DNA from: Candidatus Saccharimonadota bacterium
GTDB lineage: Bacteria; Patescibacteriota; Gracilibacteria; UBA4473
DNA: 32,000 bases
Assembly: GCA_030429505.1 (NCBI GenBank)
Contig: JAUIFI010000001.1
Coordinates: 840,001 to 872,000, forward strand
Direction: 5' to 3'
Both the position numbers and the translations under genes were made by a program. Shown piece by piece: positions 2,381 to 31,319 of the stretch (positions are counted from its first letter, which is position 1; each line of letters starts with the position of its first letter). Below the pieces are notes generated by a model. It worked only from the letters and a program-made list of their open reading frames with translations. It was not told the DNA's origin and ran no database searches.

Positions 2381-3643
2381 CTAATCAAATTTCATCGGAT
2401 CACCATCAATAATAGTATTCCAATATTTCGAATCCATCCACACCCTTCCATCTTCATCCTTCGACCACTTCGCATAGTACTCCGGTCCTTCAAATCCATA
2501 ATCGTTCCATTCCTGTAAAGTCAGAGAACGAGCAAACCTTTGTGTTTGAACATCAAACTTACAACCAGACACCAATTCCACCTTTGTGCGTAAAATACCA
2601 TCTGATACGCACCGATCTAAAAATTTCCCATCAACATCATGATTTAATATCATTAAAGCTTCAGCAACAGTAGCCTGATCTTCCATTACATTTTCCTTCC
2701 CATATAAACGAGCAAAACCACTAAATTCACTCCTTTCTTCATAGTGATCGTGAGACAAATCATGTGCCTCACTCGCATTCTTATAAGCAAGATTTCCTTT
2801 CGGATGCAAACCAAGCCAAGGTTTGTCTTCTGACCTCATTCCATCTGAATGATCAAAACGATGGAAAAATTCATGATGCAAAGCGTTAAAAATACCATTA
2901 TCAATATTAATAACCACCTTTGATTTATACTGAAATCCCCCAACGCTTTTCAAGGTTTGTTTGTTTACAAGATCAGTAACAAAATAAACCAAAGCAGGAC
3001 CGAGATCTCGAATCATAAAACGAGGATATCTCTGTAAATCTAATTCCATATCTATCAAAGCTAACTTAATTTGTTTAAGAGTAGGCACAGTAGAAGAATA
3101 AAAAGAATTTCCAAAAACCTCATACGTAATATTAAACCCATATCTATACTGTAAACGCTGAATAGTCTCGGCAATACCAAAGACCTCAATCTGAGTGTCT
3201 CGTATTCGCCCTAGCCATTGTTCTGTTTCTCCTTGAGATACACCAGAACCACCAATATCAATACCCAAAAAATGGGATTCATTGGTATATTGATCTTTTC
3301 CTTCCTGAACCAAAAAACCGAGAGAACGAAAGGCTTCTATTTCTTGTTGTAATAAAACCCTTAATTCGTCTGAAGAGGAAACCCCAAGGTATCTATTTAT
3401 CTCAAAAAAACTCAAAAAAGCCTGAAAAACACTCTCTCGATCCTCCGGATTATCAAACTCCACATCACGCAACATATTGGCAGCTTCCCAAGCGGAACGA
3501 GAAGCGATACACATAGCAGCTTGAAGTGATATACGCTCCAACCCTTGAAAATCATCGGAAGCAATACTATCTATTCTCTTATAACGCTTCAAAATAGCCT
3601 CCTGTAGCTGATCAACATCTGATTTCGGATTCTCCCCTCCCAT
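2381..3643 (-). CDS. hypothetical protein with an HExxH zinc-metallopeptidase-like motif
   Basis: 420-aa ORF. HHEFFH is encoded at 2861-2878 (minus strand CAT CAT GAA TTT TTC CAT), followed by RFDH. No signal peptide is visible. It is the last gene of a tight three-gene minus-strand cluster. Confidence 0.6.
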   Translation of the reverse strand: MGGENPKSDVDQLQEAILKRYKRIDSIASDDFQGLERISLQAAMCIASRSAWEAANMLRDVEFDNPEDRESVFQAFLSFFEINRYLGVSSSDELRVLLQQEIEAFRSLGFLVQEGKDQYTNESHFLGIDIGGSGVSQGETEQWLGRIRDTQIEVFGIAETIQRLQYRYGFNITYEVFGNSFYSSTVPTLKQIKLALIDMELDLQRYPRFMIRDLGPALVYFVTDLVNKQTLKSVGGFQYKSKVVINIDNGIFNALHHEFFHRFDHSDGMRSEDKPWLGLHPKGNLAYKNASEAHDLSHDHYEERSEFSGFARLYGKENVMEDQATVAEALMILNHDVDGKFLDRCVSDGILRTKVELVSGCKFDVQTQRFARSLTLQEWNDYGFEGPEYYAKWSKDEDGRVWMDSKYWNTIIDGDPMKFD

Positions 3644-3646
3644 AGC

Positions 3647-3958
3647 CTAAATGTGAAGATTATCTAAGTGCTCATCCATAGCAGCATCTGCCTTTCTTTT
3701 TTCTAACTCCGTAATCTTTTCTCGTATCATCTTTTTTCCTTTCCGAGCAGCATTTTGGATATGTGTCTCTAAGGCTTGAAAAAACGACGCTCTCTGGATT
3801 TCCTCTATTTTTTTTGATTCTTCACTCATAACCTCAATAACCTTATCTAGCTGAGAGTCATTAATTCCATCTAGCTGAGACAACAAACGATCCTTCAACT
3901 TTTGAGGCAAAAGTTTTGAATCCTGGATAAGATGCCGAGCCTGTAATCTTTTCGTCAT
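3647..3958 (-). CDS. hypothetical small charged, probably coiled-coil protein
   Basis: 103-aa ORF with K/E/Q-rich heptad-like sequence. It lies 3 nt upstream of the HExxH gene and 10 nt downstream of the 781-aa gene, which suggests an operon. Confidence 0.5.
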   Translation of the reverse strand: MTKRLQARHLIQDSKLLPQKLKDRLLSQLDGINDSQLDKVIEVMSEESKKIEEIQRASFFQALETHIQNAARKGKKMIREKITELEKRKADAAMDEHLDNLHI

Positions 3959-3968
3959 AAAAAAAAAT

Positions 3969-6314
3969 TTAACGTCTTACTCCAGATCGAGTCGAACCAG
4001 ATAAGCTACGCAAAGAGTCCGTAAAATCATCTAAACTATATCTTCGAGAAGCAAAATACAATTCCTGACCAGATTTTTTCACTGAAAAATCAGAGACAAC
4101 ATCATCTTTGTTATTGTATTCAAAAGATAATATCATATTTGTGCCAAAGGAAGCATTGGACACCTTAAATTGCTGCATTTCTTCATCCAAGATCCGAATA
4201 TCAGATCTCCGCACCGTAATACCTCCAGAAGCCAATCGCTCTTGCAATAACTTTCTCTGAATAACCGCATCGGGCGTAAATTGAGGAATAAAAACCTCAT
4301 CTGCCAAACCAACAGAGGATGAAGTAGTAATAGGCTCGGAAAAAACCGCCTCTTTCAAAAAGGTCTGAAAATGCTTTGGCTTTACTTGAAAAAACTCTTT
4401 ATTACCTATTCGAAGAGGATCAAAAAACTGCAATTCATAGAAAAATTCAAAATCCAAAGGAACATCATTAAAAAACACATTATTGACTTGAGTCGCCAAA
4501 CCATATCGAGCTGACATATAAGTCTTAACCACCATAGACTGAAAACTAATTCCTTTATCCTCTAAAAAATCCTTCAACTCCCGAGCATTCGCAATATGAT
4601 CTAAACGATCATCAGCCTGATCAGACGAATCTCTCTGTTGCTGCAACCCCTGAAGTCGACTATTAAGTTCTTTCTGACGATCACGTTCCTGCTGTATAAG
4701 AGCCAACTGCTCTTTCTCAATACCAGTATTTCCCACAAAAAGGATCGTATTGATAATCGCTTGCTCTTCGTCAGTAAAAACATCCAATCCCAAACGTTCT
4801 TGAATATCAGACACATTTAGCTTCCTATAGACAGACAATAAAATCTCAGATAAATCTTTTCGAGAAGAACCTTCTAAAAAATTTTGCAAAAAAAACAAAA
4901 CATCTTGACTAGACTCCAACCGAATTTCATCCAAAAATTCCTGATCCGTATGCAATATCAATTCTTTATCCACTAAAAATTTATAAAGAAGAAACAAAGA
5001 CTCCGTTTGAAAAAAGTCGTTTTTACGAAAAAGCTCTACTACCAAACGACGAAGTTTTGTAACCTCAAAAGCATCTTGAGGAGAAAGATGAATTTGCTCA
5101 ATCATGGGAAGAATTTTTTCAAACTCCAAATGAGACTTTGATAAAGACCCTTCCGCCAATAAATTCTCCGCATAAAAAAAGGTGTTTTTTACCAAAAAAA
5201 GACCATTCTCAGCTTGTTGTCCAAACCAAAACCGAACCCAAACATTATCCGGTTCGAGAGAAAAAAGTGTTTGAACCCAAAACATATGAGCCTTCAAAAA
5301 AGATTCCCACAAAAATCCCATACGATCATCTCGCTGTAAAAGAAATTGCCAAGATTCATTGTGCAATGTCTGCCCAAAAGCTTCCAGAGAAAGCTGAGTA
5401 GAACCATAGTCTCGATTTTCAAAAGCCATAAATGCTTCTACAAAATCCCTCATAAATACAAAAAATTGTCTTTTATCCTTGATAGCTTGTGGAATTCCAA
5501 ACCCAAGAGAATGCTGTATTTTCCTAGTCAAGGAGTCTAGTGGGCTTTCGGACCGAAAAAACAAATTTTCAGGAGCCAATTCAGCAAAAGCAAGTAATGC
5601 ATCTTTCCAAATATCAATGCGCTCCTCTCCCAATAAGATCAAATCAAAATAGAGAGAATTATCATCTCGATCAATTGGCTGCATTCGAAATTCCTTCTTT
5701 AACTTGGAATAAAGAAGTTGTCGAGTGATATCAGTAAGAGAAGCATCGTTAATACGAATTTTCATACCCATAGGAAGCACAAATGAGTGTTTAATTCCTT
5801 CAAAAAATACATCTACTGATCGATTTAAAGCATAAATTTCAGAGACTCCTTTATCTTGATCTCTATGAATAAATACACTTGATCCAGCACCATGAATCAA
5901 TAAAGGACCAACTCTAATTTGACCAACTTCTGGTTGAAAAGAATTAAAAGAAAAAGTTTCAGAAAAGGCAATATTATGACTTTCTTTGAAAATTCTATCC
6001 GCAATCAAAGCCGAACTCCAAAACAAATCTCCCGACAAAAAATCCCGCTTTCCATCCGAAAAATCCGCTTCACTTCCAGAAAAAAACAAAAACAATTCAC
6101 CATCATGAGTAAAAAATTCTTGGTGGTCCTCATAAAGGTCAACACGAACTGAAGAATTGATATCAACAGCACGTTCAAAAGGATTATCAACAACACTTGC
6201 CTTGTAAAAATTATTTTTTTCCAAATGCACCAAAAAAAGGAAAAGCAAAAGCGCTATCAAAAACGACCCACTCAGAAAGATAATTTTTTGAGAAAAAAAG
6301 TCTTTATACATCAC
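3969..6314 (-). CDS. large membrane-anchored hypothetical protein
   Basis: 781-aa uninterrupted ORF with one N-terminal hydrophobic helix (IIFLSGSFLIALLLFLFLV). A beta-rich N-terminal region is followed by a long F/L/E-rich, apparently helical region. I recognise no catalytic motif. Confidence 0.7.
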   Translation of the reverse strand: MMYKDFFSQKIIFLSGSFLIALLLFLFLVHLEKNNFYKASVVDNPFERAVDINSSVRVDLYEDHQEFFTHDGELFLFFSGSEADFSDGKRDFLSGDLFWSSALIADRIFKESHNIAFSETFSFNSFQPEVGQIRVGPLLIHGAGSSVFIHRDQDKGVSEIYALNRSVDVFFEGIKHSFVLPMGMKIRINDASLTDITRQLLYSKLKKEFRMQPIDRDDNSLYFDLILLGEERIDIWKDALLAFAELAPENLFFRSESPLDSLTRKIQHSLGFGIPQAIKDKRQFFVFMRDFVEAFMAFENRDYGSTQLSLEAFGQTLHNESWQFLLQRDDRMGFLWESFLKAHMFWVQTLFSLEPDNVWVRFWFGQQAENGLFLVKNTFFYAENLLAEGSLSKSHLEFEKILPMIEQIHLSPQDAFEVTKLRRLVVELFRKNDFFQTESLFLLYKFLVDKELILHTDQEFLDEIRLESSQDVLFFLQNFLEGSSRKDLSEILLSVYRKLNVSDIQERLGLDVFTDEEQAIINTILFVGNTGIEKEQLALIQQERDRQKELNSRLQGLQQQRDSSDQADDRLDHIANARELKDFLEDKGISFQSMVVKTYMSARYGLATQVNNVFFNDVPLDFEFFYELQFFDPLRIGNKEFFQVKPKHFQTFLKEAVFSEPITTSSSVGLADEVFIPQFTPDAVIQRKLLQERLASGGITVRRSDIRILDEEMQQFKVSNASFGTNMILSFEYNNKDDVVSDFSVKKSGQELYFASRRYSLDDFTDSLRSLSGSTRSGVRR

Positions 6315-6500: not shown

Positions 6501-8306
6501 ATGAGAGGTGTAATTTTAGCAGGAGGAACGGGGTCAAGACTCTTTCCAAGCACGAAAGTCGTCAATAAACACTTGTTGCCGGTTTTCAACAAGCCGATGA
6601 TTTATTATCCGATTCAAACTCTCAAAAAATCTGGTATCAATGAAATTCTTATTATTACGACAGCCCACCAAGCAGGAGATTTCATGAAACTTCTCGGTTC
6701 GGGCAGAGAATTAGATGTAAAATTTACCTACAAAGTCCAAGATGGTGCCGGAGGCATTGCCCAAGCACTCAGTTTAGCGGAAGAATTCGCTAGCAATGAA
6801 CCTATTGCTGTTATTCTCGGTGATAATATTTTTGAAAACAACTTTTCAGAAGACATTCGATGCTTTGAAGAAGGCGCGACTATTTTTGTTAAAACAGTAG
6901 AGAACCCCTATCGATTTGGCGTTGTAGAACAAGACGAAAATGGAGATGTTTTATCGATAGAAGAAAAACCATCAAATCCAAAATCAAATCTAGCACAAAC
7001 CGGTTTTGCCATCTACGACCAAGAAGTATTCGATATTATAAAAACTCTTGAACCCTCTAAAAGAGGAGAGCTCGAAATTACAGATATAAACAAAACATAC
7101 TTAGATAAAAAACAACTTAATGCTTCCGAAGTCTCGGGAAATTGGATCGATGCTGGCACACACGAATCACTACTTGAAGCCAATCTTATCGCCCAAGAAA
7201 TATTTGAAAATAAAAAGCAAACACAAAACAGCACAAAAAACATATCTACAGAAGCACAAAAAAGCCCATCTGTCACTATTGGCATTATTACTCATAATTC
7301 TGAAAAATACATCACACCATGTCTGGAATCACTTCAAAACCAAGATTATTCAAATCTAGAAATCGTAATCTTTGACAACAATTCTACCGACCAAACTTTG
7401 GATATTCTACAAGAAAGATTTCCAAATATCCGCCTCATAGAATCAAACGAAAATATCGGATTTGCTCGCTCTCACAATGAAATCATTAGACAAACAGATT
7501 CTGAGTTTTACGCCTGTTTTAATATCGACATGATTTTTGAACCCAACGTAATCTCGGAACTAGTAGATGCCATCCAACAAAAGCCAATTTTTGGATCAAG
7601 TGGTGGAAAAATAAAACGATGGGATTTTGATATGTTTCAAAAAAACCCAAACGCATCAGAAATCCAAGGAAAAACAAATTTCATCGATTCAGCCGGAATC
7701 CGCATTCTTAGAAGCCATCGCTTTGAGGATCGAGGTCAAAACGAAATTGACCATGGACAATACGAAGACTCAAAGCAAGTTTTTGGTATCTCTGGGGCCG
7801 CAGTACTGTATCGAAAAAAAGCTCTTGAAGACATTGCCTTCATTAATGAAAAAGAGAACAAAGAATATTTCGACGAGTCCATGTTTATGTATAAAGAAGA
7901 TATAGACATCGCTTATCGCCTTCAATGGGCGGGGTGGAAATCACTCTATACACCAAAAGCCGTCTGCTATCACGACCGCACCATTGCTTCAAAAGGAAGC
8001 TCCCACTTTCAAATTATAAAAAATAGACTCAAAAAGAAGAAAGTTGCCAATAGACTTTCCTACATAAATCACCACATTCTTTTGAAAAAAAATTTTTCCA
8101 AAGACTTCTCTTCCTCTATATCTCGAGCGACTTTATGGTACAATTGCAAAGTGTTTTTCTATATACTTCTGTTTGAAACAGAAGTTCTAACCGAATGGTG
8201 GAATCTTTCTCGACTCCAGTCAAAGATCAAAACTCGAAAACGATCCATGCCACGAAGAGTGTCTACCACCGAAATAGAAAAGCTTATTGAAAACGAAACT
8301 CTTTAA
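6501..8306 (+). CDS. fusion protein: RmlA-like sugar-1-phosphate nucleotidyltransferase (N-terminal) plus family-2 glycosyltransferase (C-terminal)
   Basis: The N-terminus MRGVILAGGTGSRLFPSTKVVNKHLLPVFNKPMIYYPIQTL matches the RmlA G1P-thymidylyltransferase signature. After a low-complexity linker (KKQTQNSTKNISTEAQKSPS) comes VTIGIITHNSEKYITPCLESLQNQDYSNLEIVIFDNNSTD...GAAVLYRK...EDIDIAYRLQ.AGW, which is GT2/rhamnosyltransferase-like. Confidence 0.8.
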   Translation: MRGVILAGGTGSRLFPSTKVVNKHLLPVFNKPMIYYPIQTLKKSGINEILIITTAHQAGDFMKLLGSGRELDVKFTYKVQDGAGGIAQALSLAEEFASNEPIAVILGDNIFENNFSEDIRCFEEGATIFVKTVENPYRFGVVEQDENGDVLSIEEKPSNPKSNLAQTGFAIYDQEVFDIIKTLEPSKRGELEITDINKTYLDKKQLNASEVSGNWIDAGTHESLLEANLIAQEIFENKKQTQNSTKNISTEAQKSPSVTIGIITHNSEKYITPCLESLQNQDYSNLEIVIFDNNSTDQTLDILQERFPNIRLIESNENIGFARSHNEIIRQTDSEFYACFNIDMIFEPNVISELVDAIQQKPIFGSSGGKIKRWDFDMFQKNPNASEIQGKTNFIDSAGIRILRSHRFEDRGQNEIDHGQYEDSKQVFGISGAAVLYRKKALEDIAFINEKENKEYFDESMFMYKEDIDIAYRLQWAGWKSLYTPKAVCYHDRTIASKGSSHFQIIKNRLKKKKVANRLSYINHHILLKKNFSKDFSSSISRATLWYNCKVFFYILLFETEVLTEWWNLSRLQSKIKTRKRSMPRRVSTTEIEKLIENETL

Positions 8307-8679: not shown

Positions 8680-9129
8680 ATGGCTTTTCTTCACGGTAAA
8701 AACGCACAAGAAGCAGAGGAAAAAATTCTAAATTTTATCCGCCATCACAATCTGTGCGTCGTAGCCACAGTAAATTCAGAGCAAAAACCAGACATTGCTT
8801 TGATGGAATTTCTTATAGATCAAAACCTAGAAATTATTGTCGGAACAAAAAAAGAATATCAAAAATACAAAAACCTTAAAAACAATCCTCACACCGCCAT
8901 AGAAATCGGTTTTTATGAAGACATCACTATCCAATACCAAGGTATTGCCAAAGAAATACCCACCACAAATCTCGAATCATTTCAAAAAAATAATGTTGCT
9001 ACTCGACTCAAAGAAAATAAATATCTCGGCATAGAAAACGATCTCGTGTATTTTAAAATTACCCCTACCTACATCCGCTATACCGATGTTTCTCAAGGTC
9101 CTTGGCAACACTTCGAAGTTATCTTTTAA
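8680..9129 (+). CDS. pyridoxamine 5'-phosphate oxidase-family (FMN-binding split-barrel) protein
   Basis: 149-aa ORF. A.EKILNFIRHHNLCVVATVNSEQKPDIALMEF......IVGTKKEYQKYKNLKNNPHTAIEI resembles the PNPOx/general-stress-protein-26 fold family. Confidence 0.65.
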   Translation: MAFLHGKNAQEAEEKILNFIRHHNLCVVATVNSEQKPDIALMEFLIDQNLEIIVGTKKEYQKYKNLKNNPHTAIEIGFYEDITIQYQGIAKEIPTTNLESFQKNNVATRLKENKYLGIENDLVYFKITPTYIRYTDVSQGPWQHFEVIF

Positions 9130-9231
9130 AAAACACCATCTCCCCAGAAGGTGAATCCACGTAGCTATATCTACAACACCACAAAATAAACCAAAGTAGA
9201 CTCAAATACCTATTAGAACTAATAAAATATT

Positions 9232-9826
9232 AGCGCTGTTTTATCTTGCGCCTGGATAGCTATTTCTTCATATTCCGGGTGTAAGCTAAACAGTGCATAC
9301 GCTGGTTAACGATGAAGCTCAGACGTTCTTTTCAAAATTGAAGATAGCTCCCTGGCTGGATTGGCTGGAAAAGGTTGAGGTGACTACGACCGCCGTATGG
9401 CGACACTTTGACTTAACCGGTTCTCACGGGTTCAGATAAAGAAACCCACCAGCCGTCCTACGACAGACAACTGGCGGGGAAAAGGGCGACGTCCAATCGA
9501 GTTCGACAAAGCCATTGTCAGACGAATCAGACGAACCCGACCAGAAGCATTCACCCTCGGGGGAAACCCAACACATATCGCCTGTGGTGAGCTGCGCTTT
9601 CAATAGCGGCCGGATGTAGTAGGATACATCCAGCCTTGCATCACCTCCGGCTCCGATCGATAGAAACGGCTATCGAAGTAGGCGCACAGAATTGGCGTTG
9701 CCGCGCTCAATTGTACCAGTTGCTTAACAAATTGTCAATGTTAAACAACGGTACGCAGACGGCAGGCCAGATGTTAAGCTGAAAGATTTAGCGGCTATCG
9801 ATCTCGAATCGGTAGTCGCTTTTTTG
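9232..9826 (+). ncRNA. candidate large structured non-coding RNA of unknown class (5' boundary approximate)
   Basis: GC is about 55-57% in hand-counted lines 9421-9480 and 9601-9660, against 25% at 10021-10080. No ORF of 60 aa or more in any frame across 9130-9723. Local helices: GGG-GAAA-CCC at 9560-9569, a 10-bp helix at 9608-9635, 7 bp at 9657-9676 and 15 bp at 9713-9754. It ends in an intrinsic terminator on the + strand, which sets the strand. Confidence 0.55.
9791..9826 (+). terminator. rho-independent terminator closing the GC-rich RNA
   Basis: GCGGCTATCGA (9791-9801) pairs with TCGGTAGTCGC (9809-9819) in an 11-bp stem with two G-U pairs and a 7-nt loop. TTTTTT follows at 9820-9825. 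Confidence 0.7.
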
Positions 9827-9854
9827 TTGTTTAACTTTTTGTGGAGGCAGTGCA

Positions 9855-10085
9855 ATGAGTAAAACCAAGTCCTGTCCGGGATGTCGCAAGGCGCAGATGA
9901 AGTTATTCCGCCAAGTGCGCCAGCCGAAAGGCTCCTGGGCGTATTACCAGTGTCAGGATCGCCGGTGCCGATTCCGTGAAAAGCGGTTTGAGTCCAACGA
10001 GCCGAAGTATTCGAATACCAAAAGATCAAAAAACTTCATAACCCCAAAAAGAAATAAATTTGACAGTTTTCTTCTTTCTAAATAA
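9855..10085 (+). CDS. small, very basic zinc-ribbon protein (CPGC ... CQDRRC)
   Basis: GGAGG at 9843-9847 lies 7 nt before the ATG at 9855. Sequence MSKTKSCPGCRKAQMKLFRQVRQPKGSWAYYQCQDRRCRF has a CxxC plus CxxxxC pair like transposase-type N-terminal zinc ribbons. The first ~55 codons are GC-rich like the upstream RNA. The last ~20 codons run into native AT-rich DNA. Confidence 0.45.
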   Translation: MSKTKSCPGCRKAQMKLFRQVRQPKGSWAYYQCQDRRCRFREKRFESNEPKYSNTKRSKNFITPKRNKFDSFLLSK

Positions 10086-10088
10086 AGT
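10060..10088 (+). promoter_or_regulatory. putative sigma70-type promoter for rpsP
   Basis: TTGACA (10060-10065), 17-nt spacer, TAAAGT (10083-10088), about 40 nt upstream of the rpsP ATG. It lies inside the 3' tail of the small ORF. Confidence 0.3.
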
Positions 10089-10127
10089 GCCGAAGCATAT
10101 ATTGCTTTCAGTACCAACCATTGTAGC

Positions 10128-10607
10128 ATGTTAATGATTCGTTTGTCTCGAGCAGGAAGAAAAAAAAACGCCTATTTTCATTTAGTCGTTGCCGAAAAAT
10201 CAAAAGCCGTCCAAAAAAAATATGTTGAAAAATTAGGACAATACAACCCTCATGCCAACAAAGGAGAGGGAGAATTTACTTTCTCTAAAGATCGAGTTCT
10301 TCATTTTATTAAAAACGGTGCCCAACTCTCTCAAACCGTCGCCCGCATGCTTTCAAAACAAGGTCTTAAAGAAGCAGGGGGGTTTATAAAAACACGCCCC
10401 AGCAAACCTAAAAAAGAAGTAAAAGCAAAAGAAGGAGACAAAGAAGCCACAGACAATAAAAATACTGAACCTTCAACAGAAGAAACTACTGAAAAAACAA
10501 GTGAAGTAACAGAAACACAAGAAGCTCCAGAAAATAAGCCTGAAGAATCTGTAGAAACAACCACAGAAGAAGAAAAGCCATCAGCAGGAACTGAAAAATC
10601 TGAATAA
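10128..10607 (+). CDS. rpsP: 30S ribosomal protein S16 with a long acidic/Thr-rich C-terminal extension
   Basis: M(LM)IRLSRAGRKKNAYFHLVVAEKSKAVQKKYVEKLGQYNP is a canonical S16 N-terminus. The start could be the ATG at 10134. The C-terminal ~70 aa are low-complexity (KEATDNKNTEPSTEETTEKTSEVTETQEAPENKPEE...). Confidence 0.9.
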   Translation: MLMIRLSRAGRKKNAYFHLVVAEKSKAVQKKYVEKLGQYNPHANKGEGEFTFSKDRVLHFIKNGAQLSQTVARMLSKQGLKEAGGFIKTRPSKPKKEVKAKEGDKEATDNKNTEPSTEETTEKTSEVTETQEAPENKPEESVETTTEEEKPSAGTEKSE

Positions 10608-16691: not shown

Positions 16692-16812
16692 AAGAGAAGT
16701 AAATACAAAAAAATTGTCCCACAAACCTTACTTTTTTCCAAAATAATGAAATATAAAAATCACCAATTTCTTGATTGTCTTACACACAAATTCCCTTTAT
16801 AAACAAATCAAT

Positions 16813-18117
16813 ATGAAATTTTTATACGAAACCTTCTTCTTCGAAGATTTTGTTTGGATCCCGGAAGAAAAAAAAGTGATTTTCAAATACTCCCTAGACG
16901 AAAAAATATCTTTTCAAGAAACATTTGTTTTTGATTTCGAATGGACCAAAAAAATTCCAAAAAGCATGCTAGAAAAAGCTCTTTTAGGACTCTGGATTAT
17001 GGCTGGCATTTCGTATTTTAAAACCTACCTGCCCCCTAAAATAAAAATTAAAAAATTCTCTCTTACCAGGTCACAAGCCCAATTTTTTACCAAAACCTAT
17101 ACCCTCGGGCTTGGAGAGTTTTGGTATCAAAATAACATCAATCCAAAAGATAAAATTAACTTTCCCTACCATTCCTCCCTTCCACAAACATCATCAGAAA
17201 AAACATCATTTCAAGGAAACCTGGTCCTTATCGGAGGAGGGAAAGACTCCATCACCACCGCTGAAATCCTAAAGTCACAAAACGAAGATTTCGAAACTCT
17301 TACCATCGGCAACTATGTCTTTTTTGACACAATGCTCAAAAAAATAGACAAAACACACCTCACGATTCACAGAAAATTAGATCTGAAACTCAAAGAAATA
17401 AACGCCCAAGGTGCATTCAATGGACACGTACCTATCTCGGCCATTCTTGCTTTTACAAGCATCATTGTTGCCATCCTTCGAGGTCGAAAAAATACCATCT
17501 TGTCTAACGAAAGCTCAGCCAACAATGAAAACACCAAAGCATTCGGAATCAACATCAATCATCAGTACTCTAAAAGTTTAGAATTCGAGCAAGACTTTCA
17601 AAACTATGTCAGAGAAAATATATCTTCAGATATAAACTATTTCTCATTTCTAAGACCTCTATCAGAACTTAAAATTGCTGAAGTATTTTGTAAAAATTGG
17701 TTCAAAAAATATCAAAAACACTTTGCCTCTTGTAACAAAAACTTCGTCATTAGTAACAAAAATAAAAAATTTTCTTGGTGCGGACAATGTCCCAAATGTG
17801 CTTTTGTATTCCTTCTTTTTTCTCCCTTTCTCACAAGACAAGAAGTAAATAATATCTTTGAAAAAGATCTTCTTAAAGATAAAAACCTCAAAAAAACCTT
17901 TCAAGAACTTGCAGGTATCAAAGGACAAAAACCCTTTGAATGCGTCGGAGAAGTATCAGAAATCCAGGAAGCCATCCGACTCGCTCTCAAAAAATCAGAC
18001 TGGAACGACCTAAAGCCTCTGCAAATGAAAAATCCACCATCCCACAACCATAAATTTTCTCTCCATAGCATGCCAAAAAAGTTTGAAAAAATACTCGCAA
18101 ACTTTCTCACAAAATGA
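16813..18117 (+). CDS. PP-loop (GGGKDS) ATP-pyrophosphatase-like protein with CxxCxxC; candidate MurL-type epimerase
   Basis: LVLIGGGKDSITTAEIL is a PP-loop-like motif and WCGQCPKCAFVFLL is a Cys cluster. The stop overlaps the ATG of the following MurD-like gene (ATGA at 18114-18117). The ATG at 16813 is preferred over the TTG at 16771. Confidence 0.6.
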   Translation: MKFLYETFFFEDFVWIPEEKKVIFKYSLDEKISFQETFVFDFEWTKKIPKSMLEKALLGLWIMAGISYFKTYLPPKIKIKKFSLTRSQAQFFTKTYTLGLGEFWYQNNINPKDKINFPYHSSLPQTSSEKTSFQGNLVLIGGGKDSITTAEILKSQNEDFETLTIGNYVFFDTMLKKIDKTHLTIHRKLDLKLKEINAQGAFNGHVPISAILAFTSIIVAILRGRKNTILSNESSANNENTKAFGININHQYSKSLEFEQDFQNYVRENISSDINYFSFLRPLSELKIAEVFCKNWFKKYQKHFASCNKNFVISNKNKKFSWCGQCPKCAFVFLLFSPFLTRQEVNNIFEKDLLKDKNLKKTFQELAGIKGQKPFECVGEVSEIQEAIRLALKKSDWNDLKPLQMKNPPSHNHKFSLHSMPKKFEKILANFLTK

Positions 18118-19388: not shown

Positions 19389-19549
19389 AACTAAATTGAC
19401 AGTAGGTCAAAAAAATGTAAAAGAAATATGATCAAAAGTGATCAAGCAGGCTTTTAACAAAGAATGACTTGATCGAAACGATCAAACGTTCTTTGAAAAT
19501 CGCAAGCAACCTAACAAAGACATATCAATTCATTGGAGGAGACGAATCA

Positions 19550-20875
19550 ATGAAAGCTTTGATAGTAATTTTTATAGCGGCTGTAGCAATAAGCACAGCT
19601 GCACAGCAAGAATATAATATTCAATATCTACTCTACCAAGGAGTAGAATATTACATCATTGACAATAACAATGACAATGACAATACTGTCAAAGTCACAG
19701 ATATGGCGGGACCATTTGGTCCCCTGTTTTACGAAAACGATACTCTAAAGGTAATATACTATTCTCTTCCGAGTATAGTATATTCAGGAAAGACAGTCCT
19801 ATCGTCTCCTGTAATCAAGCCTTCAGGTCATACTGAAGGCATTTACAAAGATACGGTAATGTCTATACCTCTGCCAGATGACACCTCAAGCACGAGGGAT
19901 TACGACAATCATCTCTGGGGACAAGGAGATGAAAAAAAGCATCAAAATACAGCCATAAAAACCGGAGAAAAATCAGCAGTAGGTGATCAAGCCATACTCA
20001 ATGGCGACACGATAAACCTAAAAAATAAGTACAATATTTACACTTGGAAAGGAAATGAAGTTATTGGCTTTGCTGGAGAATGGATTCCACTCATCCGAAC
20101 AGCAAGAACACCAACACAAAATAGCCATGAAGAAAGCTATAAAGGTTGGAAAGCTCGTGTTGGATCTGGTGTAATGAGCGTGGACACACAAAGCGTGACC
20201 ATGCTCAAAGCAGGGATTTCTGGACAAGCCGGAAAATTTATCTTCGGATTAGAAGGAAGTATTGGGCTACTAGAAGAAAGTAAAACAAGTAAAAAAGAGC
20301 CCCTCCAAGGGCAAATAGAGGTTGGATGGAGAGAGGATATCTGGTCTATAGCATTAAAAGGATGGGCAAACACAAACAACCTTGCTGATCCCGATGGAAA
20401 AGCAAGATACGGAACAGGAGGATATTTTCTACTGGCTCCTTCAAAAATCCCTATTAAAATAGCAATAGATGTCGACATCGGATTGACAAATGGTCTGATA
20501 GCAGGAGGGAAAATAACACTAGGGACAAAGGACTTCCCAATAATCCAAGAAAAATGGATTATAGGAGGGAAAATAAGACTATTAGTAGTTCGAACAAGTT
20601 CTCAATTTCAAGGAGTTGTTATTCCAAGAAGTCGAGAACAAATTTGGACCATAGGTGGAACCCTAGGGTACAAAACAAACTCCATTGCCTTCAAGTTTAT
20701 TCCCAATATCGGAATAAGTGATCAAGGAAGTGGACATTTTGATTTTTGGCTTGGAATAAAAGGAACAGCAGGAGAGCTAAATGGCTTCTCGGCTGGACTA
20801 AAAAACAGAAACTTCGTACTACCTCGGAATTTTCCAACAAGTTGGTGGGAAATTGAAATCGAAGTTCCCCTGTAA
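19550..20875 (+). CDS. secreted hypothetical protein with a beta-barrel-like C-terminal half
   Basis: GGAGG lies 10 nt before the ATG at 19550, followed by signal peptide MKALIVIFIAAVAISTAAQQ. The C-terminal half shows repeated alternating-hydrophobic strands rich in G and aromatics (KFIFGLEGSIGLL, IEVGWREDIWSIALKGW, YGTGGYFLL, IKIAIDVDIGL, WIIGGKIRLLV, IWTIGGTLGY, HFDFWLGIKG, WWEIEIEV). Confidence 0.6.
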   Translation: MKALIVIFIAAVAISTAAQQEYNIQYLLYQGVEYYIIDNNNDNDNTVKVTDMAGPFGPLFYENDTLKVIYYSLPSIVYSGKTVLSSPVIKPSGHTEGIYKDTVMSIPLPDDTSSTRDYDNHLWGQGDEKKHQNTAIKTGEKSAVGDQAILNGDTINLKNKYNIYTWKGNEVIGFAGEWIPLIRTARTPTQNSHEESYKGWKARVGSGVMSVDTQSVTMLKAGISGQAGKFIFGLEGSIGLLEESKTSKKEPLQGQIEVGWREDIWSIALKGWANTNNLADPDGKARYGTGGYFLLAPSKIPIKIAIDVDIGLTNGLIAGGKITLGTKDFPIIQEKWIIGGKIRLLVVRTSSQFQGVVIPRSREQIWTIGGTLGYKTNSIAFKFIPNIGISDQGSGHFDFWLGIKGTAGELNGFSAGLKNRNFVLPRNFPTSWWEIEIEVPL

Positions 20876-21156: not shown

Positions 21157-23727
21157 TCAACTTTTCTTTTCCTGTAATGATCGTAAAATAAAAAGAGTAT
21201 CAAGAGCTTGTTTTGGCGTCAATTCATCCAAATTTTGCTTGCGTAAAAACATCTCCACCTCAGACTTTTTTTCTATCTCCACAATCTTTTCATGAGATCG
21301 AGAGAAAGAAAATAAATGTGGTTGTCCACTCAGAAGATTCTCCGACTCCAGCCGTGATAAAACTTGCTTGGCTTTTTCAATAACACTTTTCGGCAAACCC
21401 GCACTTTTCGCTACCTCAATTCCAAAAGAATCAGAAATACCTCCCTCAGCAATCTGACGCAAAAATACAATTCCATCCTTATTCTGAGAGACTGTCACAT
21501 GAAAATTCTTTCCTGCTCTCAGTTTTTCCACCAAATCCACCAATTCATGATAATGCGTCGCAAAAAGAGTCTTGGCTTTGATCTGATCATGAAGAAATTC
21601 CGTAATCGACCACGCCAAAGAAATTCCATCAAAAGTCGATGTTCCACGACCAATTTCATCTAAAATCACAAAACTCCGTTCAGTTGCCGCATTTAAAATC
21701 CGAGCCGTCTCTGTCATTTCCACAAAAAAAGTCGACTTTCCTCCCGCCAAATTATCAGAAGCTCCCACTCGCGTAAAAATTCGATCGCAAATTCCCATTC
21801 GCACTTTTTTCGCTGGCACAAAAGAACCAATTTGTGCTAATAAAATTATCAAAGCATTTTGGCGTAAAAATGTGGATTTTCCCGCCATATTTGGACCCGT
21901 AATCAAATGCATTCGAGAAGTTTCTCCATCCATTACCAAATCATTTGCAATAAAAGCCTCAGACGTAATCTTCTCTACCACCGGATGGCGTCCGTTCTCA
22001 ATCTCAAGCACAGAAGAATTATCAATGATCTCCGGACAAACCCATCGCCATCGCAACGCCGTCCGAACGAGTATAAACACCGCATCAATCTCAGACAAAG
22101 CCTTTGCCGCCTGCTGAATATCCTCTATATATTCCAATAACTTCTGCCGTAACTCCTCAAAAAGCTTATGTTCCAATTCATAAGACTCACTCTCAGCCCT
22201 TAACGCCCTTTCCTCGTATTCTGATAACTCTGGCGTCGTAAATCGCTCTGCATTAACCAGAGTTTGTCGACGAATCCAACTCTGTGGAACCTTGTCTTTA
22301 TGCGCCGAAGACACCTCCAAGCAAAATCCAAAATTCTTGGAATATTTAAGCTTCAAACTCGAAATACCAGATTCCTGTTTTTTTTGTTCTAAAAACTGGT
22401 CAAGCCATACCTGACCATTCTTCGTCAAACGCCTCAACTCATCCAATTTTTCGGAGACTCCATCCCGAAACATTCCACCGACCGTAATCTCAAGTGGTGG
22501 ATGATCCACCAATTTCTCACTTAGCACCTGATACAAAGACCCAAAAACACTCAAACAAGCCAATCTTTGCAAGAAAAAAGGAGACTTGAAATCCTTAAAT
22601 ATCTCTGAAATTGCCGGAAAAACAGCAAAAGAATCTCGAAAAAAAGCCAGATCTCGCGCATTTCCTTTGCCCGTAACCAAACGCGCCAAAATCCGTTCCA
22701 AATCACACACTCGAGCTAAATTTTCTCGTAAAATATCATGACACTCCACATGTCCTGACAATTCAACCAAAGCATCTTGTCGCTCCTGCAAAGCAATCAT
22801 AGACAATAAAGGATTCTGAAGCCATGAGTAAAGTCTTCTCGCTCCCATAGCCGTTAGACTCTTCTCAAAAACCGACCACAACGTTGCCGTGTTTTCATCC
22901 GCATACAATGGTTCAAAAATCTCTAAATGTCGATACGTTTGCTGATCCAGTTGCATAATTTCAGAAGTATCGTAACGCACGAGCTTAGAAATATGAGAAG
23001 CCTTTATCTTTTGTGTCTCTGCCAAATACTCCACTATCTGTCCCGAAACTACTATTAAGAGAGTGATTTTTTCAATACCAAACACATCTAAATGTTCCAA
23101 TCCAAAATGCTTTTTTAGAACCTCAGCCGCATTTTTTGATGATAAATTCTTCCGCGGAGTTATATGCACTTTCGGTAGCTTTTGACACCAACCCTCATCT
23201 GCAAACAAATCACTCGAGAGCAATATTTCACGAGGATTAAGCTTGTACAATTCATCAAAAAAAGACACTTCATTCTCAAACAAACACGTACGAAATTCCC
23301 CTGTTGCAAAGTCTGAATACGCCAAAGCAAAAGTATTTTTCTCACGCCCGATTGATACCAAAAGTGACGGTTTATCTCGCTTCAAAGTACCTTCTTCGAG
23401 TGAAGTCCCAGGAGTCACCACACGCACCACCTGGCGTGTAATCGCTTTAGTCTTCTCATCCTCGACTTGCTCTGCAATCGCCACCTTATACCCCTGTTCA
23501 ATTAACTTTTCCAAATATTCCTGATGCGCATGATGAGGAAACCCACACATCGGCATTTCATTTTCTGTGCCTCGATGCCTAGCCGTCAAAGTTAACCCCA
23601 ATAATCGAGAACCCACCTGTGCATCTTCGTAAAACAATTCATAAAAGTCCCCCAACCGAAAAAACAACAATGCTTCCGGATTTTGCTTCTTAAGTTCCCA
23701 ATACTGACGTTGCACTGGAGTAGACAT
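21157..23727 (-). CDS. mutS: DNA mismatch repair protein MutS
   Basis: 856 aa. The N-terminus is TPVQRQYWELKKQNPEALLFFRLGDFYELFYEDA (mismatch-binding domain), followed by ITGPNMAGKSTFLRQ (Walker A), DEIGRGTSTFDG and a TH..EL motif. Confidence 0.95.
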   Translation of the reverse strand: MSTPVQRQYWELKKQNPEALLFFRLGDFYELFYEDAQVGSRLLGLTLTARHRGTENEMPMCGFPHHAHQEYLEKLIEQGYKVAIAEQVEDEKTKAITRQVVRVVTPGTSLEEGTLKRDKPSLLVSIGREKNTFALAYSDFATGEFRTCLFENEVSFFDELYKLNPREILLSSDLFADEGWCQKLPKVHITPRKNLSSKNAAEVLKKHFGLEHLDVFGIEKITLLIVVSGQIVEYLAETQKIKASHISKLVRYDTSEIMQLDQQTYRHLEIFEPLYADENTATLWSVFEKSLTAMGARRLYSWLQNPLLSMIALQERQDALVELSGHVECHDILRENLARVCDLERILARLVTGKGNARDLAFFRDSFAVFPAISEIFKDFKSPFFLQRLACLSVFGSLYQVLSEKLVDHPPLEITVGGMFRDGVSEKLDELRRLTKNGQVWLDQFLEQKKQESGISSLKLKYSKNFGFCLEVSSAHKDKVPQSWIRRQTLVNAERFTTPELSEYEERALRAESESYELEHKLFEELRQKLLEYIEDIQQAAKALSEIDAVFILVRTALRWRWVCPEIIDNSSVLEIENGRHPVVEKITSEAFIANDLVMDGETSRMHLITGPNMAGKSTFLRQNALIILLAQIGSFVPAKKVRMGICDRIFTRVGASDNLAGGKSTFFVEMTETARILNAATERSFVILDEIGRGTSTFDGISLAWSITEFLHDQIKAKTLFATHYHELVDLVEKLRAGKNFHVTVSQNKDGIVFLRQIAEGGISDSFGIEVAKSAGLPKSVIEKAKQVLSRLESENLLSGQPHLFSFSRSHEKIVEIEKKSEVEMFLRKQNLDELTPKQALDTLFILRSLQEKKS

Positions 23728-24015
23728 CGCCTCGACATTGTTAATAAAATAAAAATTTTCGCAAGTTCGCTCTTTGAATTGATATTAATTCACTTTTTAA
23801 TCCACCATTTCAACACATATTTTCCTATAGACAAGAGACCATCGTTTCAAGACAGATAGTTTCTACAAATAAAAATATTTTACTCTTTATCATCAAAACT
23901 AGAAAAAAAGGCTTTGACACAAAAGAAAAAAACATAAAAATAATTATACTGGAGAATTAATATTTTTTTCATTTTCTCTCCACAGTTCTTTTTATTCACG
24001 GTCGGAGAAAAAACC

Positions 24016-25650
24016 ATGCTAAAATTCCTAATTTTTATAGTAATGGGAACCTTTCTTGCGGGAACCCCAATCAAAGCAGCAGGCTTGTTTGAGTTCTCGA
24101 ATATGGTACACGACACCCTTTTGTGGAAAGGGGAGCGTTTTAGCCTAGTAATATCAGGACCCGCGCCGGGCGAAAAAACGTCCGTATCATATTTTGAGAT
24201 AACAGAGATCCAAGGAGGACTTTCCCCTAGAATCTTTTTTGCTCAAAAATTAGATTCTACCCTTTATAAAGGGTTTCTGGATGGATACAAGGTGATAAAC
24301 ATAGAAACCGACAGTATTCCCGACGGGGATTACCGGTTAAATGTAAAGTCGTTTTTAAACAACGGGTGGAAGCAAAATTGCAGAAGTCCGTTTTTCGTGA
24401 CTATAGAAAAACCGTTTAAAGGACGGTTTGTATCCCACATAAAAAACAAATCACGGTGGCTAGAGCTACCACGATCAACTTTTGTGTGGCAAATTGAAAA
24501 AACCCAAAGTATTCGAATGGATATGCTGGGGGATACGTGCGAAAAGCTAGAATGGTACCGCTTTGATGTATCCATTCCGGGAAGAGCTAAAGCTCTTTTT
24601 TCGTATGAAGGAAAGGATTCCTTGATAGAAAATATAGATATTGGAGATAACCCCGGAGAGGGGCCTATAAACACGTATGCTCGAGTATCAACTCTCATCC
24701 GATCCGACAGCTCTCGATGGCCCGAAGAGTTCGCTACAGGGGTTGCCATGAGTACCCCCAAAATAACAAAACCCGAAAAGCTATTATTGGAAGTCATATC
24801 GGGAAACCCACATATGACAGAGATCTTGGTAGGGGAAATCGTCCACACACGGGTCCCCAGAAACTATCAATTTCTCCTGCAGACCGGCGAAAAAAACCCC
24901 ATTGTCTTAGGCTCTGGGGAAGAGCCGAGAAGATTGGTAAATGTCGAAAAGTTTTGGACACAAGAAAAACTGCCAGATGGAGCAGAGATTCCTGTCATAA
25001 TTCATGTTCAGAAAAACTTGGCAGGCTTTCCAAGTTCCAAAACAAAAGACAGTACCATCCTAACTCTGAAGGGACAGTATAGACACAGCATAAAAATACC
25101 TGAAGACTCCTTGGTATCATCTGTTGTGAACATCCCCGTGAATAACGGTGGTCCTGTCGGAGAAAACACCTCCTTTCTGTACTCAGTACAGGAAGAAAAA
25201 AGTGGCAGAACAGAGAGGCAAGAGTCCACCGAACTAAACGTGGACTTCAACCTCCAAAGCATGATCGAAGAAATGGGTGGATTTTTTCAGGAAGGAGATA
25301 CGATCCGATTCCTCCTGAAAGTGGAGAAAAGGGTACCAGAAATGACACCCTTACAAAGCGAAGGAAGTATTCGCTTTGTATACACAAAGCGACCGACAGG
25401 AATAGCCTCGGGAGAAAGGGGAAAAACTTTTGTTTTTCCCAATCCTCTCTCCAGAGAGGAAGTTTTGACAATTAAAACGGAAGAAAGTATCGAAGGAAAT
25501 CTCGTGGAAATATATAATATCCACGGGGAGGAGATCCTGGCAACAGGGTCCATCCAAAACATATCGATGAAAAGGTTTCCGAGTGGCATATACTTCATTC
25601 GGACAAAGAACGGCAAAGAAGAAGTATGGGTAAAACTCATACTTCAGTAA
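24016..25650 (+). CDS. secreted protein with a T9SS-type (Por) C-terminal sorting domain
   Basis: Signal peptide MLKFLIFIVMGTFLAGTPIKAAG. The C-terminus FVFPNPLSREEVLTIKTEESIEGNLVEIYNIHGEEILATGSIQNISMKRFPSGIYFIRTKNGKEEVWVKLILQ* matches the PNP...V.IY...G.......L..G.YF.R........K(L/I) pattern. GGAG lies 9 nt before the ATG. Confidence 0.8.
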   Translation: MLKFLIFIVMGTFLAGTPIKAAGLFEFSNMVHDTLLWKGERFSLVISGPAPGEKTSVSYFEITEIQGGLSPRIFFAQKLDSTLYKGFLDGYKVINIETDSIPDGDYRLNVKSFLNNGWKQNCRSPFFVTIEKPFKGRFVSHIKNKSRWLELPRSTFVWQIEKTQSIRMDMLGDTCEKLEWYRFDVSIPGRAKALFSYEGKDSLIENIDIGDNPGEGPINTYARVSTLIRSDSSRWPEEFATGVAMSTPKITKPEKLLLEVISGNPHMTEILVGEIVHTRVPRNYQFLLQTGEKNPIVLGSGEEPRRLVNVEKFWTQEKLPDGAEIPVIIHVQKNLAGFPSSKTKDSTILTLKGQYRHSIKIPEDSLVSSVVNIPVNNGGPVGENTSFLYSVQEEKSGRTERQESTELNVDFNLQSMIEEMGGFFQEGDTIRFLLKVEKRVPEMTPLQSEGSIRFVYTKRPTGIASGERGKTFVFPNPLSREEVLTIKTEESIEGNLVEIYNIHGEEILATGSIQNISMKRFPSGIYFIRTKNGKEEVWVKLILQ

Positions 25651-30460: not shown

Positions 30461-31183
30461 ATGACAAGCTCAACCACAAAATACAAACGAATTCTCCTCA
30501 AACTTTCAGGCGAAGCATTACTCGGAAAAAAAGAATTCGGCATAGACTATGACATCATCAATCAAATCTGTCAGGAAATAGAAGAAGTGAGAAATATGGG
30601 CATAGAAATCGTCATCGTCATCGGCGCTGGCAATATCTGGCGTGGGAAAGAAAATGAAGAATCAGGCATTGATCGAGTACCTTCTGATTTTATCGGCATG
30701 CTCGGAACCATCATGAACTCCGTCGCTCTCCAAGCCGCACTTGAGAAAAAAGGTATTCACTCTCGCGTCTGCTCTTCCATCGACGTCCCAGCCGTCGCTG
30801 AACCATACATCACCCGGAGGGCCGACAGACATTTAGAAAAAAAACGAGTCGTTATCTGTGCCGCTGGCACTGGCAATCCATACTTTACCACCGATTCTGC
30901 CGCCGCCCTCCGAGCACTCGAACTCAAATGCGACGTCCTCCTCAAAGCCACCAATGTCGACGGCGTATACTCAGACGATCCGCGTACAAACAAAAACGCT
31001 ACAAAATTTAACACCATCACCTTTGACGAAGTCCTCGAACAAGACCTCCGATTTATGGACGCCACTGCCATCGCCCAATGCCGGGACAATGACATGCCCA
31101 TAATCGTCTTCAAGCTCATGGAACCAGGTAATCTCAAAAAAGCGATCCAAGGAAAAACCATTGGTACACAAATAAAATTATAG
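30461..31183 (+). CDS. pyrH: UMP kinase
   Basis: YKRILLKLSGEAL......GID........I..E......GIEI.IVIGAGNI.RG, ...GTIMNSVALQ.AL and ...AGTGNPYFTTDSAAALRA.E...D.LLKAT.VDGVY..DP. The ATG at 30461 is preferred, because the track ORF start at 30356 overlaps rdgB. Confidence 0.9.
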   Translation: MTSSTTKYKRILLKLSGEALLGKKEFGIDYDIINQICQEIEEVRNMGIEIVIVIGAGNIWRGKENEESGIDRVPSDFIGMLGTIMNSVALQAALEKKGIHSRVCSSIDVPAVAEPYITRRADRHLEKKRVVICAAGTGNPYFTTDSAAALRALELKCDVLLKATNVDGVYSDDPRTNKNATKFNTITFDEVLEQDLRFMDATAIAQCRDNDMPIIVFKLMEPGNLKKAIQGKTIGTQIKL

Positions 31184-31218
31184 AATCATACCAAAGGAAT
31201 AAAAATATTTAAAAAAAA

Positions 31219-31241
31219 CCGCTGATAGAAACTATCAGCGG
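31219..31241. terminator. bidirectional terminator hairpin between pyrH and the convergent membrane-protein gene
   Basis: CCGCTGATAG-AAA-CTATCAGCGG is a perfect 10-bp stem. An A-run precedes it (31211-18) and ttatgtt follows. Confidence 0.65.
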
Positions 31242-31319
31242 TTATGTTAAAGTTAGTTGATGATAACTGCCAAGCGAGTAAAACCCTCGGCAGAAAAAAC
31301 CAACAACAAGCCAACCATC

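Follow-up and report, generated by a model that had tools for sequence, protein, structure and literature searches.

The stretch of DNA analyzed here, referred to as the window (32,000 nt; positions 840,001 to 872,000 of contig JAUIFI010000001.1, assembly GCA_030429505.1, from a Candidatus Saccharimonadota bacterium placed by GTDB in the Gracilibacteria), contains a G+C-rich island between a PNPOx-like gene (8680-9129) and rpsP (10128-10607, plus strand), comprising a helix-rich segment at 9232-9826 and a small zinc-ribbon open reading frame (ORF) behind it. A reading made earlier from the sequence alone had taken the segment for one structured RNA of about 600 nt on the plus strand, comparable in scale to the ornate large bacterial RNAs. 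That proposal is partly supported: the segment is non-coding, is structured above shuffled sequence, and remains unclassified, but a single plus-strand RNA of about 600 nt is not supported. The island is best read, with low-to-moderate confidence, as a solitary horizontally acquired insert of about 0.9 kb (roughly 9150-10027). It is tentatively suggested, at somewhat less than even confidence, that this insert encodes an antisense RNA together with a terminator-gated small zinc-ribbon regulator, and not one large plus-strand RNA. The features that enter the argument are the following, with folding energies given for the strand named.

9128-9149, no strand assigned: left copy of an imperfect 22-nt direct repeat, AAAAAACACCATCTCCCCAGAA, which starts inside the stop codon of the PNPOx-like gene; a possible insertion junction.
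9232-9297, plus strand: hairpin of 21 bp including 4 G-U pairs, with no U-tail and a host-like GC content; -31.0 kcal/mol (+) versus -14.0 (-).
9340-10004, no strand assigned: GC-rich core of foreign composition, 52.5% GC, covering the non-coding helices and codons 1-50 of the zinc-ribbon ORF.
9364-9421, plus strand favored: helix; -19.3 kcal/mol (+) versus -10.5 (-).
9437-9703, minus strand: candidate RNA of about 267 nt, from a predicted start near 9703 to the tail of a terminator; a chain of hairpins containing no ORF with a ribosome-binding site.
9445-9478, minus strand: terminator-like hairpin of 14 bp (8 G-C and 4 G-U) with a 6-nt loop, followed by UUUCUUUAUC.
9482-9558, minus strand favored: helix; -31.9 kcal/mol (-) versus -14.7 (+).
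9608-9635, minus strand favored: helix; -17.5 kcal/mol (-) versus -14.4 (+).
9657-9676: helix; -7.1 kcal/mol.
9710-9738, minus strand: near-consensus sigma-70 promoter (TTGACA, 17 nt, TACAAT, with an extended -10 TG), matching at 11/12 positions.
9713-9754, no strand assigned: interrupted 15-bp palindrome that overlaps the minus-strand promoter and holds two inverted copies of GTTGYTTAAC; -18.1 kcal/mol (-), -12.9 (+).
9790-9826, plus strand: canonical intrinsic terminator with a 13-bp stem at 9790-9820 (2 G-U), a 5-nt loop and T6; -18.2 kcal/mol (+) versus -10.7 (-).
9826-9835, plus strand: third exact GTTGYTTAAC, between the terminator T-tract and the ribosome-binding site; part of an inverted-repeat pair.
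9855-10085, plus strand: unannotated zinc-ribbon ORF of 76 aa, CxxC-x22-Cx4C, with GGAGG at 9843-9847, 7 nt before the ATG.
10028-10049, no strand assigned: right copy of the direct repeat, AAAAAACTTCATAACCCCAAAA, just beyond the drop in GC content.

The foreign character of the island is evident from its composition. The segment at 9232-9826 has a GC content of 50.1%, compared with 36.7% on its left side and 38.9% on its right side, and is the GC maximum of a window that represents an AT-rich housekeeping chromosome (approximately 37-39% GC); the GC-rich tract at 9340-10004 is the only one of its kind in the window. The counts given in the sequence-only reading for three 60-nt pieces (33/60 at 9421-9480, 34/60 at 9601-9660, and 15/60 at 10021-10080) were reproduced exactly. 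However, the enrichment does not end at 9826, where that reading had closed the segment; it goes on to approximately 10004, well into the zinc-ribbon ORF, in which codons 1-50 show a third-position GC content (GC3) of 0.70, compared with 0.29-0.44 in host genes, and all 8 arginines are encoded by CGN. Codons 51-76 have a GC3 of 0.27 and use AGA for arginine. Enrichment at third positions is not explicable by RNA structure, and the tract at 9340-10004 is therefore attributed to a higher-GC donor. A high GC content is here a mark of foreign origin and need not reflect RNA structure, and the enrichment, which had been the main argument for a single RNA, loses its force because the adjacent coding sequence is equally enriched; foreign origin explains the GC content better.

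The comparison with relatives leads in the same direction. Upstream of rpsP, the island is absent in five relatives (L001, L002, and L004-L006; S16 53-74% identical), obtained from an S16-based scan of GTDB genomes and from S16 homologues, in which nhmmer and blastn revealed no similarity. At 145 nt upstream of rpsP, L001 has an oppositely oriented gene of 586 aa, L004 has a 263-aa gene 62 nt upstream, and L005 and L006 have 398 nt of unrelated sequence of 35% GC. The direct repeats that flank the island (9128-9149 and 10028-10049) match at 17 of 22 positions, which was equaled in 4 of 300 shuffles of both junction regions. Hence, the composition and codon usage, the absence in relatives, and the flanking repeats by which genomic islets are recognized are all present here; no mobility gene (integrase, transposase, Rep, or relaxase) occurs in the 32-kb window, and no donor was found.

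The segment at 9232-9826 is non-coding, because it contains no ORF and its six-frame translation matches neither a Pfam family nor a protein. In agreement with the sequence-only reading, no ORF of at least 60 aa crosses 9130-9723 under genetic codes 11, 4, or 25 (the longest, on the minus strand, has 59 aa); the longest open stretch, 81 codons, is about the random expectation at 50% GC. The six-frame translation gave nothing in Pfam at E <= 1, and a search of 5.8 billion protein clusters with the six-frame concatenate had no hit at E <= 10. Many Gracilibacteria read UGA as glycine, and such an alternative code was considered and rejected: the source genome uses the standard code, in which the genes at 16771-18117 and 21157-23727, among others, stop with TGA, in-frame TGA is absent from long genes, and codes 4 and 25 yield no island ORF.

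A weak 3-base periodicity is nevertheless detectable in 9232-9826 (1.86 versus 0.75 in shuffles, p ~0.02), and the zinc-ribbon homologue P0024, at locus L007, is preceded by ORFs of 94, 49, and 126 aa. By analogy with those small ORFs, the segment might represent one or more decayed protein-coding genes of the donor, i.e., pseudogenes upstream of the zinc-ribbon gene. This explanation is very unlikely, since the periodicity lies far below that of real genes here (4.3-7.0), the GC phase is inconsistent along the segment, the Pfam and protein-cluster searches just described were blank in every frame, and tblastn with the proteins encoded beside the homologues found no match in the island.

What the tract does encode is the zinc-ribbon ORF at 9855-10085, which is real and has true homologues, because three homologues keep its cysteines together with W, Y, K, F, and E residues and because it is modeled confidently as a zinc ribbon. 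These homologues (P0024, P0025, and P0026, of 48-69 aa, E = 1.5e-6 to 6.7e-4) were recovered by an exhaustive HMMER search of 1.84 billion representatives, which beyond these three small relatives reached only topoisomerase I zinc-ribbon repeats; the residues conserved in the alignment are C7, C10, P24, G26, W28, Y31, C33, C38, K43, F45, and E46. The family core of about 50 aa (residues 1-50) coincides with the GC-rich part of the ORF. In the AlphaFold2 model, a three-stranded zinc ribbon, the pLDDT is ~90 for residues 11-40, 86 for residues 41-50, and ~50 or below in the tail. This AT-rich tail, which the model shows as disordered, lacks conservation and overlaps the rpsP promoter. No match for the zinc ribbon was obtained with a word-indexed protein search, in PHROGs or NCBIfam, or with tblastn against phage records. 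The ORF was evidently never called as a gene, because it is missing from protein collections that contain the S16 protein of the same genome.

Around the homologues themselves, further small CxxC...CxxC ORFs (45-49 aa) occur at L008 (3428-3577) and L017 (1162-1299), and the one at L017 aligns with the family. At L007-L012, the homologue lies inside a TerD/vWA cluster, where its neighbors are small ORFs of unknown function and one weak match to GIY-YIG.

The helix-rich nature of the segment, as claimed originally, was borne out by folding. As a 595-nt unit, it gives z-scores of -4.6 on the plus strand and -5.7 on the minus strand, none of 100 dinucleotide shuffles being as stable, and every helix named in the sequence-only reading (a GGG-GAAA-CCC hairpin at 9560-9569, and those at 9608-9635, 9657-9676, and 9713-9754) is present. 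The plus-strand ensemble has a minimum free energy (MFE) of -211.9 kcal/mol and a centroid of -166.7 kcal/mol; the minus-strand ensemble is better defined, with an MFE of -212.8 kcal/mol and a centroid of -204.6 kcal/mol.

However, the helices are not all consistent with one transcribed strand. Helix energies differ between the strands because G-U pairs on one turn into A-C mismatches on the other; for example, the hairpin at 9445-9478, with four such pairs, has -24.6 kcal/mol on the minus strand versus -13.1 kcal/mol on the plus strand. Within 9445-9754, the minus strand gives the greater stability for four of the five helices, by 3 to 17 kcal/mol, and the plus strand is preferred only at 9232-9421 and 9790-9826. 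The z-scores of the sub-regions, which correct for the U/G-richness of the minus strand, agree with the energies of individual helices: 9232-9436 (205 nt) has z = -2.42 on the plus strand and 0.02 on the minus strand, whereas the candidate minus-strand RNA at 9437-9703 has z = -4.71 (MFE -114.0 kcal/mol, centroid -109.4 kcal/mol, 0 of 200 shuffles as stable) versus z = -3.02 (-89.8 kcal/mol) when folded on the plus strand. The terminator at 9790-9826 had been taken to fix the strand of the segment as plus; it does not do so for the segment as a whole, whose helices at 9445-9754 favor the minus strand. Of the terminator itself, the strand and the T6 stand as described, and the stem, given as 11 bp from 9791, is corrected to 13 bp from 9790.

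Searches for RNA families were consistent with the claim that the segment matches no known family. At gathering scores, Rfam 15 finds only the tRNA-Tyr in the whole window. Within 8900-10300 at E <= 10, the best E-values are 1.5-7.8, with scores of 15-18 bits versus thresholds of 45-59, and no large RNA family appears; in particular, there is no OLE, ROOL, GOLLD, HEARO/omega RNA, raiA, RNase P, tmRNA, SRP RNA, 6S RNA, group I or II intron, riboswitch, or T-box. ARAGORN likewise finds no tmRNA, as had been stated, and the RNase P hallmark GGAAAGTCC is absent from both strands of the island, also as stated. Outside the island, GGAAAGTCC occurs as its reverse complement at 24217, in a stretch of low folding z-score; Rfam at E <= 5 (23600-25000) finds nothing there, RNase P included, and the occurrence appears coincidental.

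The search for relatives in metagenomes and by BLASTN that the sequence-only reading had proposed was carried out in part, as blastn and pattern scans, and no relative was found. The blastn search (word size 11) of the island, whose scope was phages, plasmids, and E. coli genomes, returned nothing, nor did an exact 28-mer of the island in IMG/VR, nor degenerate 24-nt patterns (six per scan, from stop-free island translations) in IMG/VR and the JGI metagenomes; since the pattern scans require exact 24-nt degenerate seeds, only close relatives are detectable by them and distant ones are possible. A literature search on structured RNAs of the candidate phyla radiation (CPR) and Gracilibacteria found nothing relevant.

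Taken together, these results bear on the single plus-strand RNA of a new class, as large as OLE, ROOL, or GOLLD, that would run from about 9232 to the terminator at 9790-9826 and would, if true, constitute a new large RNA class. The segment is indeed ORF-free, GC-rich, and dense in helices, with a plus-strand z of -4.6; its plus-strand terminator is excellent, and a possible -10 element, TAAAAT, lies at 9223-9228; the plus-specific hairpins at 9232-9297 and 9364-9421 and the GAAA tetraloop suit this strand; and a new class would show no Rfam match. However, the middle 310 nt fold better on the minus strand, both per helix and by z-score, the distance between the plus-strand centroid and MFE indicates a poorly defined fold, and no plus-strand promoter of at least 9/12 matches was found upstream of 9232. 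The GC argument is confounded by the foreign composition common to the neighboring ORF, the nearest relatives are without the island, and the lack of a homologue in any collection searched means that neither conservation nor covariation speaks for it. One plus-strand RNA is accordingly improbable; the helices are divided between the strands, and the best-bounded unit lies on the minus strand.

This minus-strand unit is delimited by a promoter and a terminator. The promoter at 9738..9710 is of a quality (at least 11/12) reached anywhere in only 0.6% of island shuffles and at three sites in the 32-kb window, and its hexamers also precede rpsP in the relative L005. A G+C-rich stem-loop with a U-tract directly behind it, the hallmark of intrinsic termination, is present at 9478..9445 on the minus strand as well as at 9790-9826 on the plus strand. 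The second of these ends 17 nt before the GGAGG of the zinc-ribbon ORF, and no promoter of at least 9/12 was found between the two. GTTGYTTAAC occurs in three exact copies in the 32 kb, at 9719-9728 (plus) and 9740-9749 (minus) within the palindrome and at 9826-9835, so that all lie inside 9719-9835, compared with ~0.1 expected. The palindrome at 9713-9754 could be an operator or an RNA hairpin.

From these motifs, the transcription of both strands and a regulatory circuit can be inferred. In the model tentatively favored here, the promoter at 9738..9710 would produce a hairpin-rich minus-strand RNA of about 267 nt, which would stop at its own terminator, 9478..9445. Plus-strand transcripts arriving from the left would include the ribosome-binding site and ATG of the zinc-ribbon ORF only if they read through the terminator at 9790-9826. 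The minus-strand RNA, because it is fully complementary to the plus-strand leader over 9437-9703, may serve as a countertranscript that lowers the read-through or the stability of the plus-strand transcript, and the small, basic zinc-ribbon protein, resembling Ogr/Delta and the N-terminal part of NrdR, may bind the GTTGYTTAAC repeats at the minus-strand promoter and before its own ribosome-binding site. If this holds, the island would represent a compact regulatory module gained horizontally by a symbiont-type genome of ~1 Mb, a kind of genome in which non-coding RNAs (ncRNAs) and mobile DNA are poorly charted, and would provide the first genomic context for a very rare zinc-ribbon family of ~50 aa (three other clusters among 1.84 billion).

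Two related arrangements were considered and dropped. A type I toxin-antitoxin locus was rejected, as a small hydrophobic ORF was looked for and none is present. The GTTGYTTAAC repeats hold RYYYAAC and GTTRRRY cores, as in an integron cassette or attC site; there is no integrase or cassette array in the window, and the palindrome is much shorter than an attC.

The promoter of rpsP itself is a canonical sigma-70 site at 10060-10088 on the plus strand (TTGACA, 17 nt, TAAAGT), situated 40 nt 5' of rpsP within the tail of the zinc-ribbon ORF. The relative L005 has TTGACA...TACAAT (~350-385) at the equivalent place before rpsP, and this lineage therefore appears to use standard promoters.

Several observations weigh against the antisense-plus-regulator model. 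The promoter and terminator scans yield consensus matches only, and the number of terminator-like sites in the region, 3 versus 2.6 expected, shows no enrichment. The plus-strand leader has no convincing promoter upstream of 9232, and the plus-specific helices at 9232-9297 and 9364-9421 are unexplained by an antisense RNA; conversely, the palindrome at 9713-9754 is more stable as minus-strand RNA, yet it lies upstream of the predicted minus-strand start. As folding controls, nineteen other 595-nt windows of the same 32 kb were folded on both strands (38 strand-windows); most gave z between +1.5 and -2.9, but 3 of the 38, all over coding sequence, reached z <= -4.6 (-4.6 to -5.6), so that the structural signal of the island is real, yet not unique. 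The non-coding part has no homologue in any collection searched. The likeness of the protein to DNA-binding zinc ribbons is not significant, either in Pfam (Ogr_Delta, PF04606, E = 0.003, 17.9 bits, below the cut-off of 26.3) or by Foldseek, whose nearest folds are the NrdR DNA-binding zinc ribbon and Pol I A12.2 (E >= 0.19). Finally, none of the 13 homologue loci (L007-L019) resembles the island, has an Rfam RNA next to the gene, or shows a leader or antisense arrangement like the one seen here, which means that RNA and protein do not form a conserved pair.

Two of these controls lie in recognizable genes. The one at 24100-24694 (z = -5.6 and -4.6 on its two strands) is inside a 544-aa ORF with a Por_Secre_tail domain, and the one at 30900-31494 (minus strand, z = -4.8) is over an amino-acid kinase gene.

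A rival explanation is a fragment of inert DNA, recently acquired from a higher-GC donor (a mobile element or host bacterium), whose leftover hairpins and motifs have no function here. The foreign composition, the absence from relatives, and the orphan status in every database searched fit this explanation, as do the helices of mixed strand and the controls with similar z-scores. Moreover, the tail of the ORF continues into host sequence and into the rpsP promoter, which a junction would be expected to produce, and the ORF is uncalled in the source annotation and absent from the collection that holds S16 of the same genome. On the other hand, the ORF keeps an intact zinc-ribbon core behind a strong ribosome-binding site, the promoter is near consensus, both terminators are well formed, and a streamlined genome of ~1 Mb seldom retains 1 kb of junk; the GC content has not yet drifted to the host level, which fits either a very recent arrival or selection. 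Inert DNA is, on balance, only slightly less probable than the antisense-plus-regulator model.

A function at the level of DNA was also weighed, whether as a recombination or attachment site, a replication or single-strand origin, or an operator cluster. The palindromes at 9657-9676, 9608-9635, and 9713-9754 are perfect or nearly so and strand-neutral, there are three copies of GTTGYTTAAC, inverted as well as direct, the island has direct repeats on both sides, and the adjacent gene encodes a zinc ribbon of DNA-binding type. Against this stand the lack of an integrase, transposase, Rep, or relaxase gene in the window, the lack of iterons or tandem repeats, and a folding signal made up mostly of long one-strand-specific helices with G-U pairs, which are typical of RNA or single-stranded DNA and not of duplex operators. 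A DNA-acting element is thus quite improbable.

There is also a slim prospect that the island represents a new lineage-restricted structured RNA, or a ribonucleoprotein with a rare zinc-ribbon partner, that moves horizontally into reduced CPR genomes. In that event, it would define a new class of large or mid-sized ncRNA with a dedicated zinc-ribbon partner, which the searches used here would have missed because its relatives are few or have diverged too far. As it stands, the present analysis serves chiefly as a caution: ORF-free sequence of high GC content in an AT-rich genome can be a sign of foreign DNA instead of structured RNA, and a terminator at the end of such a stretch does not fix the strand of all the sequence upstream of it.

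The remainder of the window is in keeping with a housekeeping chromosome, its genes including those for YchF, MutS, a Mur ligase, RbfA, L28, S16, and a KH-domain protein. The nearest relatives of the S16 protein, with 53-74% identity, come from metagenome-assembled genomes labeled Candidatus Gracilibacteria and from metagenomes. S16 (10128-10607, plus strand) is extended at its C-terminus by ~80 aa of acidic, lysine-rich, low-complexity sequence, and the alignment of its homologues is confined to the first 57-64% of the query. A 601-aa fusion protein encoded on the plus strand at 6501-8306 has both a sugar-nucleotidyl transferase and a family-2 glycosyltransferase domain. Several long ORFs (420, 103, 781, 448, and 468 aa; 2381-6314 on the minus strand, 16771-18117 and 19469-20875 on the plus strand) have no Pfam family at E <= 1e-4.

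With regard to known systems, covariation and conservation are the defining evidence for ornate large RNAs, of which OLE is found in the context of oapA, and ROOL and GOLLD in phage or tRNA-cluster contexts. None of these contexts applies to the island. The ornate large bacterial RNAs OLE (RF01071), ROOL (RF03087), and GOLLD (RF01998) have been described structurally by cryo-EM (PMC12286853). Like them, the island is approximately 600 nt in size, ORF-free, helix-dense, GC-rich relative to an AT-rich genome, and closed by an intrinsic terminator. Unlike them, it matches no model even at E < 10, has no homologue in the collections searched, divides its helices between the strands, and extends its GC enrichment over adjacent coding sequence.

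Countertranscript attenuation, by contrast, is well established in plasmids, for instance in the leader and countertranscript RNA (ctRNA) of pT181 and pIP501, and a related arrangement exists in ColE1 with RNA II, RNA I, and Rom. The island resembles these systems in having a predicted long untranslated plus-strand leader, which closes with a terminator directly ahead of a small gene and its ribosome-binding site, a strong opposite-strand promoter inside that leader, a putative antisense unit with its own terminator, and an adjacent gene for a small, putatively nucleic-acid-binding protein. At the level of sequence motifs, the pT181/pIP501-type layout is present in full (plus-strand terminator ending at 9826, ribosome-binding site at 9843, minus-strand promoter at 9738..9710, and minus-strand terminator at 9478..9445). 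However, the downstream gene encodes a zinc ribbon and not Rep, the setting is chromosomal without replicon genes, and the candidate antisense RNA of ~267 nt is longer than known ctRNAs (~60-150 nt). The only ctRNA match, ctRNA_pGA1, is the terminator itself (14.8 bits versus a threshold of 45, E = 7.8), and the island is not a member of the pT181, pIP501, or ColE1 systems.

The protein, for its part, differs from the Ogr/Delta activators in that its score falls short of the family cut-off and that, by sequence, it is related to three tiny orphan clusters whose function is not known. Nevertheless, it has the same cysteine spacing as the Ogr/Delta activators of phages P2 and P4 (PF04606), C-x2-C-x22-C-x4-C, at C7, C10, C33, and C38, and with 76 aa it is of similar size, while the N-terminal zinc ribbon of NrdR is among the best structural matches of its model.

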